Below are positions 7,424-13,801 of a DNA stretch of 64,000 nucleotides, piece after piece. This stretch comes from a phage, in sequence record PZ452579.1. One strand, 5' to 3'. Numbering within the stretch: position 1 is the stretch's first letter; each line of letters starts with the position of its first letter. The notes below the pieces were generated by a model. The model made no database searches. It saw nothing but the letters and a program-made list of their open reading frames with translations, and had not been told where the DNA came from. Both the position numbers and the translations under genes were made by a program.

Positions 7424-7759
7424 TTAACCGCGGAGCTTATTGAGCTCTTCATAATCAACCCAGGATTCTAGCCCAGATGGCAAATCAGATTCAACATTCC
7501 ACAGAAGCTCTTCGATGGCTTGTAGGCGATTATATTCTTCAACAGTAATAGTAACCATTGTTTCAGGCTTTTTAACCATCATGTCATTCATCAGAATGTA
7601 CAGGTCTTCACAAACAGCTGGGTCGTCCCATGTCCATATTTCAGCATCTCTAACCAATGAAGTCGGAATCGAATTTAAAACTTCAAGCTTAGTAGGAGCG
7701 TCAGGGCCGAGAAGAGTTGCTACAAATTTATATGCTTTGGCGAAATCAATATTGTTCAT
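7424..7759 (-). CDS. hypothetical acidic protein (111 aa)
   Basis: ORF; ATGA overlap with nrdC stop. Confidence 0.5.
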   Translation of the reverse strand: MNNIDFAKAYKFVATLLGPDAPTKLEVLNSIPTSLVRDAEIWTWDDPAVCEDLYILMNDMMVKKPETMVTITVEEYNRLQAIEELLWNVESDLPSGLESWVDYEELNKLRG

Positions 7760-8019
7760 TTAAAATATTCTCGCAGTTGGTCAAATCCACCAATGTGACT
7801 TCCGTCAGGAGCAAACACTTGAGGCATAGTCAATCCGACTTGTGATTCACGTCCAAGCTTAACCAGAAGCTCAGCAATTTTCTCATCATCAAAAACACCT
7901 TTTTCTGGCATAACATTAATGAATTCGAATGGCTGTTTCTTAACAGTCAGCAATCGTTTCGCATTATCACAGAAAACGCAACGGTGAATAGTAGAGTCAT
8001 ACCCGTACACTTTAAACAT
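7756..8019 (-). CDS. nrdC: thioredoxin/glutaredoxin NrdC
   Basis: 87 aa from MFKVYGYDSTIHRCVFCDNAKRLL...; CxxC redox motif; matches recalled T4 NrdC; SD AAGGA. Confidence 0.85.
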   Translation of the reverse strand: MFKVYGYDSTIHRCVFCDNAKRLLTVKKQPFEFINVMPEKGVFDDEKIAELLVKLGRESQVGLTMPQVFAPDGSHIGGFDQLREYFK

Positions 8020-8425
8020 TATTTTTCCTTTCATCGATTAAATATGCAACACCAAATACAATACATGTAATAAAACCTGTTATACAGATAGAAACCAACA
8101 ACACTGTACCAAAGAACCAAATCAGGTTATCTTTAGTAGTTTGTTTGATATCCATCTCACGAATTTCTATAGCTATCGTATCACCTTTATTCAGAAGCGT
8201 ATAAAACGACGGTGATACATGCCTGTCAAAAACACGACCTTGTTCATCTTTATAAACTGCAATAAATTCTAATTTAGAATATTTTCCTGTAGATTGACCT
8301 GAAATTAATTCCACCACCTCCACAGGAATTACTTTAGTTTCCATGTAAGTATTCTGGCTGTTCCAAATGAATGGAATGATGGCAAAAACTAAAGCTGCAA
8401 TAAAACAACGAAGGCTATATCTCAT
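8012..8425 (-). CDS. membrane protein (137 aa, N- and C-terminal TM segments)
   Basis: Hydrophobic segments at both ends. Confidence 0.55.
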   Translation of the reverse strand: MRYSLRCFIAALVFAIIPFIWNSQNTYMETKVIPVEVVELISGQSTGKYSKLEFIAVYKDEQGRVFDRHVSPSFYTLLNKGDTIAIEIREMDIKQTTKDNLIWFFGTVLLVSICITGFITCIVFGVAYLIDERKNNV

Positions 8426-8730
8426 TATAATGTTCTCTCAAATTTGTGGAAGCATTTACGGCATTTCAATTTCAAGTTATCAGTGGTCCAGTTAACCAGT
8501 TGGACTTGGATAGTTCCACATTCCGGGCATGGATGTTTTGCTGCCGATTTGGCAGCATTTTCACGTCGTTCAACCATTTTCATGATTTCGTTCCATGCCG
8601 GAGGAACGAACTCTTCTTCACCGTGGATTTTATCTCGCTGAACAAATTCAATCTTTGAACTATCGTCAATAAACTTAACCAAGCGGTGATTAGTGCTCAT
8701 ATCAATATCCTCTAAAAGACGTAGTTTCAT
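8425..8730 (-). CDS. zinc-ribbon protein (101 aa)
   Basis: C-terminal CPEC-x17-CRKC motif. Confidence 0.55.
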   Translation of the reverse strand: MKLRLLEDIDMSTNHRLVKFIDDSSKIEFVQRDKIHGEEEFVPPAWNEIMKMVERRENAAKSAAKHPCPECGTIQVQLVNWTTDNLKLKCRKCFHKFERTL

Positions 8731-9680
8731 TATAACACCTCAATGGCATTTCGTAAACCATCCGCTTTCGCATTCAGAGCTTTTAACGATTTAGTCTGTT
8801 CTGCAATCTGGGCTTCGACTTCTTTCAGACGAGATTTGAGATATTCGCGTTCTTCTCTTAAGTTATCAACTTTTTCTACTTTAGGTTCTTTAATAGGCTT
8901 AGGCTTAAACACATTAGGGTTCTTCAGTTTAATTTGAATTCGAGAACTGAATAACATTGAACCGTTATCTTCGATTTCGTCAAACATTTCAACAACATCC
9001 ATAGTCTGTAACATCATGCGAAGTTTATAAGACAACGAACGAACGGTTTTGTTGCGCTTATTAATTTCTTCGGCTTTCATGGTACCGAGATTACGTGAGT
9101 AGTAATAAGGAACCTGGATATCAATTGATAATGATGCGTTACCATTACCGGTTGGTTTGAATACTGCAGTAACCCAATCTTTAACATGAACTTTATTTGT
9201 ACGACCATCACCGCCTGTGAATAATTTACGAGAATGTTTAAAAAGCATATTCACTTGGTTATTGAATTCACAAGCAAATTTATCAGCAAATTTAGTTTCA
9301 GGAATGGTAGAGAACCAATCAGCCAAATGAGTCTTTTTAACATCATTAACAATAGTGAATTCAACCAAATCGGTTTTAGATGTCACAGATTTAATAAAGT
9401 TCGGCTTCATAAAGTTTTTGATGTTATCACGAGCCACAGTAGAAGATAATAAACGAGAACGTTTGAACCATTGAAGCAGTGTCCCTAATGAATGAGAATA
9501 CGCATTTTGAGTATCTTTACAGATATGATTTTCTTGACCTGTGTATGTACCAAAATCACGAAGAATACCACTTACTACATCTCGGTGTTGAACATCAAAT
9601 CCTAGTGCACCAGCAGCGCGCTGAGCATGAACGTTAGCGATAAGACCGGCAAAGTATTCAATGTAATGTGAACGTGTCAT
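8730..9680 (-). CDS. paralog family A (316 aa), C-terminal coiled coil
   Basis: Shares ILR(D/N)xG...E(N)H and R-x-x-x-K-NF motifs with 10734..11729; heptad-like C-terminus. Confidence 0.65.
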   Translation of the reverse strand: MTRSHYIEYFAGLIANVHAQRAAGALGFDVQHRDVVSGILRDFGTYTGQENHICKDTQNAYSHSLGTLLQWFKRSRLLSSTVARDNIKNFMKPNFIKSVTSKTDLVEFTIVNDVKKTHLADWFSTIPETKFADKFACEFNNQVNMLFKHSRKLFTGGDGRTNKVHVKDWVTAVFKPTGNGNASLSIDIQVPYYYSRNLGTMKAEEINKRNKTVRSLSYKLRMMLQTMDVVEMFDEIEDNGSMLFSSRIQIKLKNPNVFKPKPIKEPKVEKVDNLREEREYLKSRLKEVEAQIAEQTKSLKALNAKADGLRNAIEVL

Positions 9681-9708
9681 AATATTTTCCTCTCGTTAAG
9701 ATAGAAAG

Positions 9709-9738
9709 ATTATACTCCAACCATCCTTGGTTGTAAAC
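9709..9738 (-). promoter_or_regulatory. early promoter cassette (-35 GTTTAC, 18 nt, -10 TATAAT) with CCAAGGATGG dyad
   Basis: Read on minus strand upstream of 8730..9680. Confidence 0.55.
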
Positions 9739-9742
9739 TGAT

Positions 9743-10678
9743 TTATGATTTTAATGCATTCATTGCGTTAAAAAGTTTAGAGTACTGCAACTGGAGCTTG
9801 GTAACTACTTGTTGAGCATCACGAAGCTTAGCTTGTGCTTTGTCAAGTTCAACAGACAGTTGGTCCATAGTGGCCTTGATTTGATTATAATAGTAATCTT
9901 CAGCAGGAAGAAGACCGTTAGAGATTTCCAATTTAGTCGACGGTGAAGTGTATATAGATGGAGCAGTAGAATATGCACCTAGAACTTCAGCATTGCCAAT
10001 TGGGGTTGCAGTAATTGATGCTTCGAACGTTGCATTTTCCTTTTTAAGATTTTGATAGTATTCAGAGTCTTTGTGCCACCATGGCGCAGGAACCTTTTTA
10101 CCAATAGATACACGAGCCTGGATAGCGATATGGCCCTTATTCTTGATAGGGTCGATAATATTAAGCTCACGAGAATAAATTGCTTTAATCTGGTGGATAT
10201 TATCACCTAAAACTTCCAACGCTTGGTGGAATACACGAGCAACGTTATCATTCTTAGGTTTATACGTAAGAGTGAACTCGTTCTCACTGATAACCATGAT
10301 TTCTAACTTATCGTAAGTATATTTCAAATGTTTCATGTTAATTGCTTGAGGACGAATACGAGAAGCAATGGCCATCAGATTGTTAAGGTTATTTCTGAAC
10401 TGTTTAGCAAAATATTGTCCGTAACCGCCAATACAAAAATTACGAAGTTTCTGCTTGGCTAATAAACGGCTGAACTCACCATTTTTAATGAACTCTTTAA
10501 CGGGTGTGTTAGTAACGCATTCAAATTGAGTAAACTTACGAGAAGTAATCCCATAATATGAACAGATTTCCTCAATCTCTTCAGGAGTCTTTACAGGCAT
10601 ACGGATGGGATTAGGTCCTGGGGTATATGCATTCGAGGTAAATTCTTTGATAAGTTCTCTACGTGTAATAGAAGCCAT
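9743..10678 (-). CDS. paralog family B (311 aa), C-terminal coiled coil
   Basis: CIGGYGQYF... and AIASRIRPQAINMKHLKY segments align with family C; coiled-coil tail. Confidence 0.65.
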   Translation of the reverse strand: MASITRRELIKEFTSNAYTPGPNPIRMPVKTPEEIEEICSYYGITSRKFTQFECVTNTPVKEFIKNGEFSRLLAKQKLRNFCIGGYGQYFAKQFRNNLNNLMAIASRIRPQAINMKHLKYTYDKLEIMVISENEFTLTYKPKNDNVARVFHQALEVLGDNIHQIKAIYSRELNIIDPIKNKGHIAIQARVSIGKKVPAPWWHKDSEYYQNLKKENATFEASITATPIGNAEVLGAYSTAPSIYTSPSTKLEISNGLLPAEDYYYNQIKATMDQLSVELDKAQAKLRDAQQVVTKLQLQYSKLFNAMNALKS

Positions 10679-10704
10679 TTTATATTCCTCATGTTGAAAA
10701 ATTT

Positions 10705-10733
10705 ATTATACTACAACCATCCTTGGTTGTACA
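10705..10733 (-). promoter_or_regulatory. early promoter cassette (-35 TGTACA, 17 nt, -10 TATAAT)
   Basis: Minus strand; same CCAAGGATGG dyad core as at 9709. Confidence 0.5.
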
Positions 10734-11729
10734 TCATTCCTTAAGAAGTTTTACTACTTGAATAAGATTAGCTCGTTCTGTTTTATTTTTACCGTTTAAG
10801 CCTGCTAATCGTGAGATTTCATCGTCAGTCTGTTGAATAGTTACATTAAGTTCGTTAATCAAAGCTTCAAAGTATTTGATTTGCTCAGCATGTTTTGATT
10901 CAAATTTCTGAACCGGAATAACGTCTTGGTTCAGTTCATCAATAAGGTCTTTAAGAGCATCTTCTTGGTTGATATCATATTCAACTTCTTTTATTTCTTC
11001 AGCGAGCTCGTCTTTATATCTAACATCTTTTAGTCCTGGAGCTGGACCTAAAATCTCTTCTTTAAGAGTACAAACATATCCAATACGATATCCAATGCCG
11101 TCTCGCTTGATATCAACTTCGTCGATAAATCCACAATGTTTAAGCCCGGAGCCAATTAGGTCAAAATATCCTTGACGACGTCCTTCAAACGTTACACGAA
11201 CTACTAAGACGGTTTTGCCACCGACCTTTTGAAGCTCACATTTATAAAAGTCTGTTGAACCTGAATAACGTGGATGAGTTTTAAAGTTCATCTGACGATC
11301 TAGGCCCATTTGTAAGCGTGCTGATACGGCCAGAAAACGTGTTTGGTTCTCGTTAAGATGAGCAACAATCCATTTCAAAGGCATTTTACCATGTTCACGA
11401 CCGAACAAATCAGTACGTCCTAAATTACGCAGGATATTGTTAGAGTTAATCATCGACAGAACGTTAAGTTTATTCAGCGCGCTGAAGATTCCATCGGCCA
11501 TTGATTTTCCGTAACCTTTACATGCTTTAATAAGCGCTCGCGGTAGATTAGTATAGATTTCAGACGGCATATGAAAATCAAATTTACTAACCAGTAATTG
11601 ATGAACTTGGATAGCAATTTGTTCATAATTAAGTGCTCTGCGATCATTATGGTCTTTAAACCACACTTTAATCTGTGAAGCACATAAACCGTTAATTTCA
11701 TGTTTTACCGCATCAGATGTAATGCTCAT
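10734..11729 (-). CDS. paralog family C (331 aa), C-terminal coiled coil
   Basis: CKGYGKSMADG... and NNILRNLGRTDLFGREH motifs shared with A and B. Confidence 0.65.
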   Translation of the reverse strand: MSITSDAVKHEINGLCASQIKVWFKDHNDRRALNYEQIAIQVHQLLVSKFDFHMPSEIYTNLPRALIKACKGYGKSMADGIFSALNKLNVLSMINSNNILRNLGRTDLFGREHGKMPLKWIVAHLNENQTRFLAVSARLQMGLDRQMNFKTHPRYSGSTDFYKCELQKVGGKTVLVVRVTFEGRRQGYFDLIGSGLKHCGFIDEVDIKRDGIGYRIGYVCTLKEEILGPAPGLKDVRYKDELAEEIKEVEYDINQEDALKDLIDELNQDVIPVQKFESKHAEQIKYFEALINELNVTIQQTDDEISRLAGLNGKNKTERANLIQVVKLLKE

Positions 11730-11764
11730 AACTATTTCCTCAGATTGAATTGGAACTCAAAACC

Positions 11765-11790
11765 ATTATAACCCGTCCTTGGGTAAAGCG
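11765..11790 (-). promoter_or_regulatory. middle-promoter-like element (MotA-box-like CGCTTTA 13 nt upstream of TATAAT)
   Basis: Minus strand; TATAAT at 11765..11770, box at 11784..11790. Confidence 0.4.
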
Positions 11791-11791
11791 T

Positions 11792-12319
11792 TTATGCGTG
11801 AACCGTCTTTAAACGTTCTTCAAATTTCCGAAGAGTACTAATACGTTCTGCTTTCTGTTTTGTATAGTTTGCAATACGTTCTGAAGTGAGAGCGTATCGT
11901 TCGTTTACTGTTTCTTTCATGAAGTCAGGGATTTCACGAGAAGCTTTAATTTCATCAAACTTATCGAGTACTGCCTGGTCTTCAGCGATTAAATTTTCGT
12001 ACATCTCGATATCTTTCTTAATGAAGTCGATATCTTCCTGGGTTACTTTGGATAAACGAGATGCTTTATCCTTTTTGTACTGCTCGTTAGTTTCGCGAGA
12101 CCAGAATAACGTACGTTTTTTGTTAGTGTTTTTGTAGACTTCCACAATTCCAACTGAATCGATGATAACAATCCAATTCCAGCGAGATTTGAAAATCTGA
12201 CCTCCGTCCACGGTAATCTCGTTACCATAAGCAACGTCGTTAAAGAACTTGCTTTGTGCTTCAGATTTAAATTTACCGTCGTTATAATTTACCAGGTTGA
12301 AAATATCTTTAGCGTTCAT
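11792..12319 (-). CDS. hypothetical protein (175 aa)
   Basis: ORF with SD GGAGG; promoter cassette upstream. Confidence 0.6.
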   Translation of the reverse strand: MNAKDIFNLVNYNDGKFKSEAQSKFFNDVAYGNEITVDGGQIFKSRWNWIVIIDSVGIVEVYKNTNKKRTLFWSRETNEQYKKDKASRLSKVTQEDIDFIKKDIEMYENLIAEDQAVLDKFDEIKASREIPDFMKETVNERYALTSERIANYTKQKAERISTLRKFEERLKTVHA

Positions 12320-12346
12320 GTTTTACCTCCAGTAGTTGATAGGTCT

Positions 12347-12375
12347 ATAATAACATAACCATAGACCTTGTAAAC
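12347..12375 (-). promoter_or_regulatory. early promoter cassette (PeSL-like: -35 GTTTAC, 17 nt, -10 TATTAT in inverted repeat)
   Basis: AGGTCTAT/ATAGACCT dyad around -10; minus strand. Confidence 0.55.
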
Positions 12376-12377
12376 AA

Positions 12378-12665
12378 CTAAAAGAAACTTTTTTCGGTAT
12401 TTTTTCCACTGAACCAAACCGACTTCGGTATTTTCTGTAATTTTTCAGATTTAAGTTTCTCTTCCTGTTCTTTCTTATATACACCCTTGTCGTACTGGAG
12501 CATCTCTATGGCATTCTTTTGCAAACGATCTAAGGTAATTAAGGCTTTAGTTTTTCCTTTCAAGGAAGAGTCCTGGCGAACCTCCTCGCTATATTGCATC
12601 GTAGAACTAACCATACGATGAGCATAGAGTTCGACTGCGGCTTTAATTTTTTGCATAAAATCCAT
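12378..12665 (-). CDS. hypothetical protein (95 aa)
   Basis: ORF; overlaps out-of-frame 68-aa ORF 12560..12766. Confidence 0.4.
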   Translation of the reverse strand: MDFMQKIKAAVELYAHRMVSSTMQYSEEVRQDSSLKGKTKALITLDRLQKNAIEMLQYDKGVYKKEQEEKLKSEKLQKIPKSVWFSGKNTEKSFF

Positions 12666-12803: not shown

Positions 12804-12926
12804 TTATTTCAGTAAAGTAACTTCCGAGATTTCTTCCCAACCATCTTTATCAGTTGAAATAAAATCTGCTACATAAAGAGCCGTACGTAATGATACATTG
12901 CGAAGACGAGATACGTTAGCCTTCAT
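12804..12926 (-). CDS. possible 40-aa ORF coupled to ATPase stop (ATGA)
   Basis: MKANVSRLRNVSLRTALYVADFISTDKDGWEEISEVTLLK; below track threshold. Confidence 0.2.
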   Translation of the reverse strand: MKANVSRLRNVSLRTALYVADFISTDKDGWEEISEVTLLK

Positions 12927-13762
12927 CCAGGACAATGCTTTATACGTTTCTGCATCATGTCAGTAGATAATATTACATCTTCAACTCGAACCATAATCTC
13001 TTCATTAGAGTGTACTCCAAGGTCCAAATACACTGAACGAGATACTAAAGCTTGAAGGTGGGGAGCAAGTTTCGAACCGCGTTCTAACTCTTTATCGATA
13101 TCAACGTTTGTAATGAAAACAATAGTACCTTCAAACTCAAATTCTTTATCAATACCCTTATCATCGAGATAAGATGACGCAGTGCTCCAACAAACTTTGC
13201 GTTTATCTCCGGTATCTAATGCTGCTTTAAGAAGGTTCAAGATGTCCATATCTGAGAATACGTCAACGTCGTCGATTAAGAGAACGCTGTCTGCATCACG
13301 GTTGAGCCAAAGTTGTTCGTAAAGGCCAATACCAGAGATTTTACCATTAATACTTTTGTATTTGATGAAACCATTATCATTAGCATTATTAAGTGCTTTA
13401 TCCAGAGAATACGTCTTACCAATACCGGCTGCACCTGAAATAATGAGTGAACGAATTTTGCCATCGATAATACCATTCGTCATCATGTTCATTACTTTAA
13501 AGCGTTTGTTGATACGAGTTTTCATATCTTCAGTGCTTTCAACAACTGCAACTGGTGATGTCTCAACTCCTTCCATTACGATGTCTGATTTGAAGACCCA
13601 TACTCCACGTTCAGAACCATCAATCATAACGAAAATTTTACCGTCACCTAAGTGGGAACATTCAGGATTAAGCTTTGCCGGGAACCATGTCTTTGTGGCA
13701 ACATAAGAACCAGAGATTTCGTTATTACGATAGATACCTTTTTTGATTTGAACGTTGAACAT
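12923..13762 (-). CDS. P-loop NTPase (Walker A GAAGIGKT, Walker B VLLIDDVD)
   Basis: Start at ATG (MFNVQIKK...) after SD GGAG; ~110-aa N-terminal extension before P-loop. Confidence 0.65.
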   Translation of the reverse strand: MFNVQIKKGIYRNNEISGSYVATKTWFPAKLNPECSHLGDGKIFVMIDGSERGVWVFKSDIVMEGVETSPVAVVESTEDMKTRINKRFKVMNMMTNGIIDGKIRSLIISGAAGIGKTYSLDKALNNANDNGFIKYKSINGKISGIGLYEQLWLNRDADSVLLIDDVDVFSDMDILNLLKAALDTGDKRKVCWSTASSYLDDKGIDKEFEFEGTIVFITNVDIDKELERGSKLAPHLQALVSRSVYLDLGVHSNEEIMVRVEDVILSTDMMQKRIKHCPG

Positions 13763-13801
13763 TTTATTCTCCAAATTTACTCATTTCGTTTCGATAGGTC
13801 T

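Follow-up and report, generated by a model that had tools for sequence, protein, structure and literature searches.

The 64,000-nucleotide stretch of phage DNA analysed here (sequence record PZ452579.1, referred to below as the window) carries three consecutive genes on the minus strand, at positions 8730..9680 (gene A), 9743..10678 (gene B) and 10734..11729 (gene C), which encode proteins of 316, 311 and 331 aa and, judging from sequence comparison, are very probably paralogs belonging to the nrdC.3, nrdC.5 and nrdC.6 families, respectively. The best explanation of the data is that these genes arose by ancient tandem duplication within a family specific to T4-like phages and have since diverged extremely far, and it is rather likely that the proteins are non-enzymatic, dispensable counter-defence or host-range factors. 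The initial annotation of these genes, which was made by eye, gave exactly these coordinates and proposed one diversified family; direct comparison of the three proteins is silent on this relationship, and the support comes through intermediate profiles.

Over positions 8000-12400, the window is approximately 97% identical to Mosigvirus genomes of the RB69/JS09 type. According to the JS09 annotation and the T4 map, the site of A, B and C is the nrdD-49-pin-nrdC-nrdC.x block of the T4-type genome, and recovery of the nrdD-49-nrdC-nrdC.x order confirms the position that had initially been assigned. Gene A is the nrdC.3 orthologue: its product matches phrog_1435 over the full length (E 1.3e-102), is 57% identical to T4 NrdC.3 over the full length and is encoded by a gene that is named nrdC.3 in JS09, and PF26897 is carried by every close homologue. 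Gene B belongs to the nrdC.5 family (Pfam DUF7235, PF23882; phrog_2351). The DUF7235 hidden Markov model (HMM) scores 382.7 bits against B (E 1.9e-114, with a cut-off of 30) over profile positions 1-307, compared with 420.6 bits (5e-126) for T4 NrdC.5 and 405 bits for QL01_86, and the identity between B and T4 NrdC.5, a protein of similar size encoded at the same locus, is 23% over 307 aa. Gene C belongs to the nrdC.6 family, with a full-length match to phrog_2257 (E 5.9e-126), PF26899 recorded on its close homologues, and 30% identity to T4 NrdC.6 (E 1e-19). T4 NrdC.3 and NrdC.4 (both phrog_1435) and NrdC.6 (phrog_2257) are encoded in the same gene order and orientation as A and C. A GAGG or AGGA ribosome-binding site is located 7-9 nt ahead of the ATG in all three genes. 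The homologue sets are narrow, comprising 33, 19 and 4 clusters for the three genes; when viral contigs are scanned with the B alignment, only 4 loci are returned, and HMMER run over the whole library with the C family recovers only 6 representatives among 1.84 billion proteins and zero links to the other nrdC.x families.

The evidence for common ancestry was obtained from wider alignments of the nrdC.3, nrdC.4, nrdC.5, nrdC.6 and merged nrdC.3/4 families, which were collected from this locus in 20 T4-like genomes and compared by hhalign, with the links calibrated against column shuffles (60 for nrdC.3/4 versus nrdC.5) and reversed alignments. The nrdC.3 and nrdC.4 families are linked with a probability of 98.6% (E 1e-15). 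The merged nrdC.3/4 profile matches the nrdC.5 profile with a probability of 87% (E 3.9e-6) and a score of 49.8, compared with a null of 13.9±2.4 (maximum 22.8) and a score of 14.5 for the reversed alignment. The aligned region spans residues 72-233 of A and 63-170 of B, which lie outside the C-terminal coil, and the probability is still 75% when the last 70 aa are removed.

The nrdC.6 family, including C, is reached through a bridging family with three members, each encoded by a single gene of ~337 aa directly upstream of nrdC.2: gp089 of Citrobacter phage Moon (phrog_12512), Q7622_093 of an Enterobacter phage (Kanagawavirus) and ORF-089 of Edwardsiella phage PEi20 (phrog_26858). This Moon/Kanagawa family matches nrdC.5 with a probability of 96.2% (score 70.1; null 14.1±2.5, maximum 22.0) and nrdC.6 with a probability of 93.5% (score 56.6; null 15.1±2.2, maximum 20.1). 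Merged profiles connect all of the groups at 89.8-92.9% over non-coil columns; nrdC.5 merged with Moon/Kanagawa matches nrdC.6 at 89.8% (columns 44-138 and 73-160), and nrdC.6 merged with Moon/Kanagawa matches nrdC.3/4 at 91.8% over 175 columns. Additionally, a single-copy gene located beside nrdC in Acinetobacter phages (Acj9p122, KARL1_164 and others) matches nrdC.3/4 with a score of 36.7, for which the null maximum is 17.7. In comparisons with PHROG profiles, Q7622_093 matches both phrog_2351 (1.8e-7) and phrog_2257 (1.5e-6, residues 151-336), and phrog_26858 is matched by T4 NrdC.4 and by B at about 2e-4. When an HMM built from the Moon/Kanagawa sequences only is run against the window ORFs (open reading frames) of at least 80 aa, C (1.9e-4) and B (5.2e-4) are the top matches and the next is at 0.18; no fourth paralog is found in the window by this search. 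The Moon, Kanagawa and Acinetobacter genes encode 325-343 aa, occupy the same site beside nrdC/nrdC.2 and have the block order and C-terminal helix of the window genes, to which they are linked by profile or fold matches; however, they are single-copy genes outside any tandem array, and their identity to the window genes is 12-23%. Genes of 256-262 aa in the same region of Kanagawa- and Jiaodaviruses were also considered as family members and were rejected, with hhalign probabilities below 1%.

An alignment of 19 sequences reveals the colinear blocks that are common to these proteins. The first block, ...K.SR(L)LS....A...(L/I)(K/R)N(F/Y/L), is followed by a Gly-containing turn, and the second, F..(F/L)(R/N).N....(I/L)L..(A/S)(S/A)R(L/I), is followed by a strand region, a helix ending in ...M(D/E).V(E) and a P(V/I)(E) linker; the last block is the C-terminal helix ending in (K/R)L..A(L/M/I)..L(K). 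Three short N-terminal motifs had been named initially as shared by A, B and C, and only one of them corresponds to a block of this alignment. R-x-x-x-(K/N)-NF is the true homologous first block in A (SRLLSSTVARDNIKNF) and B (SRLLAKQKLRNF), and its counterpart in C is NNILRNLG, whereas the CxGYG and ILR(D/N)xG pairings were rejected as neither colinear nor conserved in the families. The pairing of NNILRNLG of C with ILRDFG of A (residues 39-44) joins unrelated segments. The CKGYG of C (residues 70-74) is located in a segment without a counterpart in NrdC.6 proteins of the T4 type, and GGYG of B aligns with LFGRE of C, not with CKGYG. Because the motifs recognised by eye are not colinear, the grounds on which paralogy was first proposed were in part chance resemblance.

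On the basis of the predicted structures, the proteins most likely follow a common plan, in which a helical N-domain of ~150 aa and a small β-β-α-β-β domain are followed by a disordered linker rich in Pro and Lys and by a helix of 40-50 aa at the C-terminus. The AlphaFold2 model of C, which was calculated from 7 sequences, has a mean pLDDT (predicted local distance difference test) of 67 and a value of about 80 for residues 1-145. It contains seven helices in residues 3-141, a β-β-α-β-β unit at residues 162-221, a disordered acidic linker at residues 224-277 and two terminal helices (residues 281-308 and 313-330) that are split at AGLNGKN. The linker of C carries an acidic insert of ~40 aa, which brings the protein to 331 aa, compared with 280-295 aa in its NrdC.6 relatives. 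The model of A, calculated from 23 close sequences, shows the elements in the same order as in C and ends in a single helix at residues 275-315 with a pLDDT of 70-79.

A C-terminal coiled coil had been predicted for all three proteins; the prediction holds for A and B and is weaker for C, which has two helices in this region. The test used was a home-made score, and not COILS or Marcoil, for heptad periodicity of hydrophobic residues in a predicted helix over 28 residues or more, with 35-residue windows and 200 shuffles for A and B. In A, the coiled-coil-type helix comprises residues 275-316 (8733..8858, minus strand) and is supported by the model and the heptad score; the window of residues 279-313 scores 0.85 compared with a null of 0.50±0.07, and none of the 200 shuffles reaches this value. 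In B, the coiled-coil-type segment comprises residues from about 261 to 311 (9746..9898, minus strand) and is supported by the heptad score and the end-to-end alignment, and again none of the 200 shuffles reaches the score of the window of residues 261-295. The corresponding part of C is a helical hairpin in the AlphaFold2 model (residues 281-308 and 313-330; 10737..10889, minus strand) with weaker heptads, and the window of residues 281-308 is marginal (p about 0.09). The C-termini of the nrdC.3 and nrdC.5 families can be aligned over their entire length of 56 columns, with a score of 28 versus a null of 10±1.7, and the tail ...KL.NA(L/M)NAL(K/N) of T4 NrdC.5 is also present in B. The C-terminal segment of C is conserved throughout the nrdC.6 family and is also found by itself in the truncated fragments P0060 and P0061.

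Two side observations concern the C-terminal helix of the nrdC.6 family. T4 NrdC.6 is annotated as a protein of 275 aa and is without the last ~20 residues of the C-terminal helix that is conserved in the 295-aa relatives. Inspection of the AF158101 locus (L003, 3997-4066, between nrdC.6 and nrdC.5) reveals the missing end, ...SEREKLIKIVDLLKS*, in another frame, where it stops right before the nrdC.5 ribosome-binding site, which suggests either that the T4 reference contains a frameshift or that the truncation is real. Additionally, the metagenomic proteins P0060 (129 aa), P0061 (88 aa) and P0059 (85 aa) consist solely of the NrdC.6 C-terminal helix module or of a frameshifted N-terminus, and they are probably remnants of deletions similar to the one in phage Pinarejo that is described below.

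A Foldseek search of the BFVD database with the model of C retrieves full-length proteins of ~300 aa from T4-like phages of Enterobacter, Pectobacterium, Klebsiella, Acinetobacter, Yersinia and Serratia (E 3e-8 to 2e-3), and one of the matches (E 1e-6) agrees with the syntenic Acj9p122 both in its phage and in its size of 325 aa. The models of A and C both match E5EYP0, with template modelling (TM) scores of only 0.21-0.25, and the result for A is weak because the model of A is poor. E5EYP0 and E5EYP1 (318 and 348 aa), which are neighbours by accession in BFVD, both match the model of A and may be a further tandem pair of the nrdC.3-.6 superfamily in another T4-like phage.

Several observations weigh against a common origin of A, B and C. 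Pairwise BLASTP among the three proteins is not significant (E >= 0.15), and hhalign with the shallow alignments from the first searches (Neff, the effective number of sequences, of about 1.5) gives probabilities below 2%. The scores of the nrdC.6 family, with C included, against nrdC.3/4 and nrdC.5 are 18.6-19.6, which is within the null (maxima 21.5-22.1). Because these direct comparisons lie within the null, the link to C is transitive, not direct, and rests on a single bridging family with three members and on profiles of low Neff. The coiled-coil tail supplies part of the bridging score, and the direct probabilities of Moon/Kanagawa to nrdC.5 and nrdC.6 are 26-30% without the last 70 residues. 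The model of A has a pLDDT of 50 with an unusable N-domain, and the Foldseek TM-scores are 0.2-0.5, so identity of the folds is not demonstrated.

Together with the separate treatment of the three families in Pfam and PHROGs and the lack of colinearity of the motifs first proposed, the insignificant pairwise and direct nrdC.6 comparisons and the loss of bridging probability without the tail favour an alternative in which A, B and C, as similarly sized but unrelated ORFans, gained their C-terminal coils independently or by module exchange, and in which the apparent homology is due to coil composition and chance. This alternative is considered unlikely. The alignment between nrdC.3/4 and nrdC.5 lies outside the coil and largely survives removal of the tail, and the two merged profiles match over extended columns; reversed alignments, in which the heptad periodicity is kept, score only 14-18. 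Q7622_093 matches phrog_2257 over residues 151-336, and the domain order and the locus are common to every genus examined. Of the comparisons that were suggested for confirming paralogy, the pairwise alignments are not significant and the profiles linked via intermediates are.

The possibility that A, B and C are thioredoxin-related or other redox proteins, as many GenBank records name these coding sequences, is extremely improbable. Searches of Pfam and NCBIfam with the three proteins return zero thioredoxin or glutaredoxin matches, and the annotation was rejected on this ground. The genuine NrdC glutaredoxin is encoded by the ORF of 92 aa at 7756..8034, a conserved CxxC motif is absent from A, B and C, and the predicted combination of a helical domain, a small α/β domain and a coil is unlike thioredoxin. 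Homologues of nrdC.2 through nrdC.11 are often labelled 'thioredoxin' in GenBank relatives, and this product name seems to have spread from the 'nrdC.x' gene names. No match to an enzyme family or a solved fold is found for the three proteins in searches that include Pfam and NCBIfam, and no DNA-binding domain is detected in the same searches; the initial impression that a catalytic motif is absent agrees with the lack of any enzymatic signature in the profile searches.

A comparison across T4-like genomes shows that the copy number at the nrdC.x locus ranges from 1 to 4 depending on the genus. T4 and ZN18 have four copies, Mosigvirus has three (.3/.5/.6), Dhaka- and Gaprivervirus have three (.4/.5/.6), and the Moon, Kanagawa and Acinetobacter phages have one. 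Because nrdC.4 is missing from the window, it contains three copies compared with the four in T4. Divergence is also pronounced: the identities of A, B and C to their T4 counterparts (57%, 23% and 30%) compare with 77-91% for the flanking gp49, NrdC, NrdC.8 and NrdC.10. Natural deletions affect individual copies. In ACG-C40 (L009, 5805-6216), nrdC.6 is the only copy kept and a 70-codon N-terminal stump of nrdC.5 stands beside the C-terminal tail of nrdC.3; in Pinarejo (L010, 5922-6135), nrdC.6 is lost and a remnant is left; and in CJY920 (L015, 4971-5927), nrdC.4 is lost and nrdC.3 is joined to the upstream region of nrdC.4 at the shared M-T-R-x-x-Y-I start. These deletions fit unequal recombination at cassettes located at the gene starts. 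The family is single-copy beside nrdC/nrdC.2 in Acinetobacter, Moon- and Kanagawa-type phages and has probably expanded to three or four copies in Tequatro-, Mosig-, Dhaka- and Gaprivervirus; each copy would be an early or middle cassette with transcription of its own, preceded by a repeated promoter-hairpin element, and the copies are easily lost or recombined.

The initial annotation assigned a separate early or middle promoter to each gene, and consensus matches are present ahead of all three. An early σ70-like element ahead of A (9709..9737, minus strand) reads TTTACA-17-TATAAT with 11/12 matches, and an early promoter-like element ahead of B (10705..10733, minus strand) reads TGTACA-17-TATAAT with 10/12 matches. 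The element ahead of C (11765..11793, minus strand) is middle-promoter-like and consists of aaaCGCTTTA, a 13-nt spacer with CCAAGGACGG and TATAAT; the MotA-box-like cGCTTTA takes the place of the -35 hexamer and is followed by N13 and TATAAT at 11790..11765. By the published T4 consensus, this cGCTTTA is a putative MotA box. However, the scan statistics provide no support for the assignment, in that σ70-like sites are not in excess in the region (11 observed versus 17 expected from shuffles). Since the scan is not enriched, the case for promoters rests on their position, the quality of the A and B matches and the repeated cassette.

The repeated cassette is defined by an identical 27-mer, TACAACCAAGGATGGTTGnAGTATAAT, which is present in the A and B elements (9709-9735 and 10705-10731, both on the minus strand) and for which 0 occurrences are expected by chance. 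Its spacer folds as a CAACCA-AGGA-TGGTTG hairpin, with an energy of -6.9 kcal/mol in the A element and -9.1 kcal/mol (z -3.4) in the B element; overall, the hairpins are weak to moderate, at -6.4 to -9.1 kcal/mol. A CCAAGGAnGG core is common to the A, B and C elements and to the regions upstream of T4 nrdC.3 and nrdC.7. The AGGA loop is constant, and the stems covary between copies and phages (CAACCA/TGGTTG, AGCCA/TGGCT, TACCA/TGGTA and ACCC/GGGT). The elements resemble the promoter-early and promoter-middle stem-loops (PeSL and PmSL) described in T4-type phages (Arbiol et al. 2010, PMC2839356; Comeau et al. 2014, PMC4122927), which likewise combine a TTTACW-N17-TAYWAT early promoter or a Mot-box middle promoter with a stem-loop. 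As in the published cassettes, the elements here flank variable, dispensable ORFs of the hyperplastic region, and deletion junctions are found at gene starts. The difference is that the hairpin is located inside the promoter spacer here, whereas the published hairpin adjoins the promoter. Unlike B with its promoter-like element, T4 nrdC.5 follows nrdC.6 without its own promoter.

With regard to function, the most informative precedent is T4 NrdC.5. An evolved T4 clone that lacks the region does not plate on E. coli ECOR17 or on MG1655 carrying dsr1 of ECOR17 (PMC9391042), and expression of nrdC.5 restored plating of the T4 clone on Dsr1-bearing cells (Srikant, Guegler & Laub, eLife 2022, PMC9391042). 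Dsr1 is a SIR2-domain defence protein (NADase) of ECOR17, and its sensor domain of tetratricopeptide (TPR) repeats, which is common to Dsr1 and Avs7, is reported to recognise phage major capsid proteins (2026 preprint, PMC12803255). B resembles T4 NrdC.5 in that DUF7235 covers its full length, and A and C are more distant relatives in the superfamily. A functional parallel, by analogy only, may be seen in DSAD1 of SPbeta-like Bacillus phages, a non-enzymatic neutraliser of the SIR2-type NAD+-depleting defence DSR2; DSAD1 differs in phage lineage and target. In addition, gp49.2 of T6, which is encoded beside the nrdC.x block, inhibits the OLD defence nuclease (PMC13096335), and because this inhibitor comes from that position, an anti-defence island may extend over all of the 49-nrdC.x stretch. 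In the window, small ORFs at 7424-7759 (minus strand) and neighbouring ORFs correspond to T4 49.1-49.3 by position only.

The combination of early expression, dispensability, rapid divergence, copy-number flux, the lack of enzymatic features and a position within an anti-defence island makes a counter-defence or host-range family the best-supported assignment. Three points weigh against it. T4 NrdC.5 is the sole member of the superfamily with a reported phenotype; the evidence that it acts against Dsr1 is complementation, the mechanism not having been established in that study (PMC9391042); and because B is only 23% identical to T4 NrdC.5, anti-Dsr1 activity should not be assumed for B. A counter-defence role for B has an even chance of being correct, and such a role for A and C is put forward tentatively, as the less probable outcome. 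If the assignment is correct, proteins of this type may bind and neutralise host immune proteins, with the fast-diverging N-terminal part giving target specificity and the conserved C-terminal helix mediating oligomerisation.

Alternatively, the paralogs could be early host-takeover or regulatory proteins that act on host transcription, the nucleoid, the membrane or nucleotide metabolism, and the effect of NrdC.5 on Dsr1 would then be indirect. Early or middle expression from putative promoters of their own, the neighbouring nucleotide-metabolism genes (nrdD, nrdC and tk), the complementation-only evidence for NrdC.5 and the occurrence of one copy in T4-like genera that are only distantly related, a hint of some conserved role, are all consistent with this explanation. 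However, the genes are dispensable and are often deleted in natural isolates, their divergence is far above that of the flanking genes and they occur in 1 to 4 copies; the island also holds pin and the anti-OLD gene for gp49.2, which are anti-defence or host-range genes, and neither a DNA-binding nor an enzymatic domain is detected. A host-takeover role is therefore regarded as rather improbable, and a counter-defence or host-range function is preferred.

A more elaborate and speculative version of the counter-defence proposal, which we regard as doubtful, is that nrdC.3, nrdC.4, nrdC.5 and nrdC.6 form a modular counter-immunity array with the conserved C-terminal coiled coil as a common oligomerisation handle, fused to N-terminal recognition domains that diversify rapidly. 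The paralogs would each neutralise their own immune sensor (Dsr1 in the case of NrdC.5), mixed assemblies of the co-expressed paralogs might form, and the promoter-hairpin cassettes would allow phages to gain, lose and exchange copies. If true, the array would be a phage-side analogue of a diversified receptor family and would add three or four anti-defence proteins, of a new fold, to those already known.

Two further observations concern the neighbouring genes. An nrdC.7-like membrane protein, 41% identical to T4 NrdC.7, is encoded at 8012-8425 (minus strand) between nrdC and nrdC.2, whereas T4 nrdC.7 is located between nrdC.6 and nrdC.8, and T4 nrdC.1 is absent from that position of the window; the gene order of the block has thus been shuffled. 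The NrdC.10 homologue, a P-loop protein encoded at 12804..13774, has a frameshift relative to JS09 at about 12944-12956 (minus strand). Residues 1-273 and residues 277-326 both match JS09 with 100% identity but in different frames, and the split is due to a sequencing error or marks a pseudogene.

The genes and the individual families were already catalogued; what appears to be new is that the separately catalogued families are unified as a single tandemly expanded superfamily. PF26897, DUF7235 and PF26899, together with phrog_1435, phrog_2351, phrog_2257, phrog_26858 and phrog_12512, are reduced from three or four catalogued families to one. In the literature searched, DUF7235, PF26897 and PF26899 are unmentioned, and nrdC.3-.6 are not discussed as paralogs. 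The locus exemplifies tandem duplication, extreme divergence and cassette-mediated loss in an accessory region of a phage genome. Many hundreds of sequenced coliphages of the T4, RB69 and JS98 types, a large number of them phage-therapy candidates, carry genes of this superfamily, which are still annotated as 'hypothetical' or, wrongly, as 'thioredoxin'. Since the families form one superfamily, the phenotype of T4 NrdC.5 against Dsr1 becomes a testable hypothesis for all of the members, which constitute a compact set of candidate host-range determinants in an island that already contains pin and the anti-OLD gp49.2.

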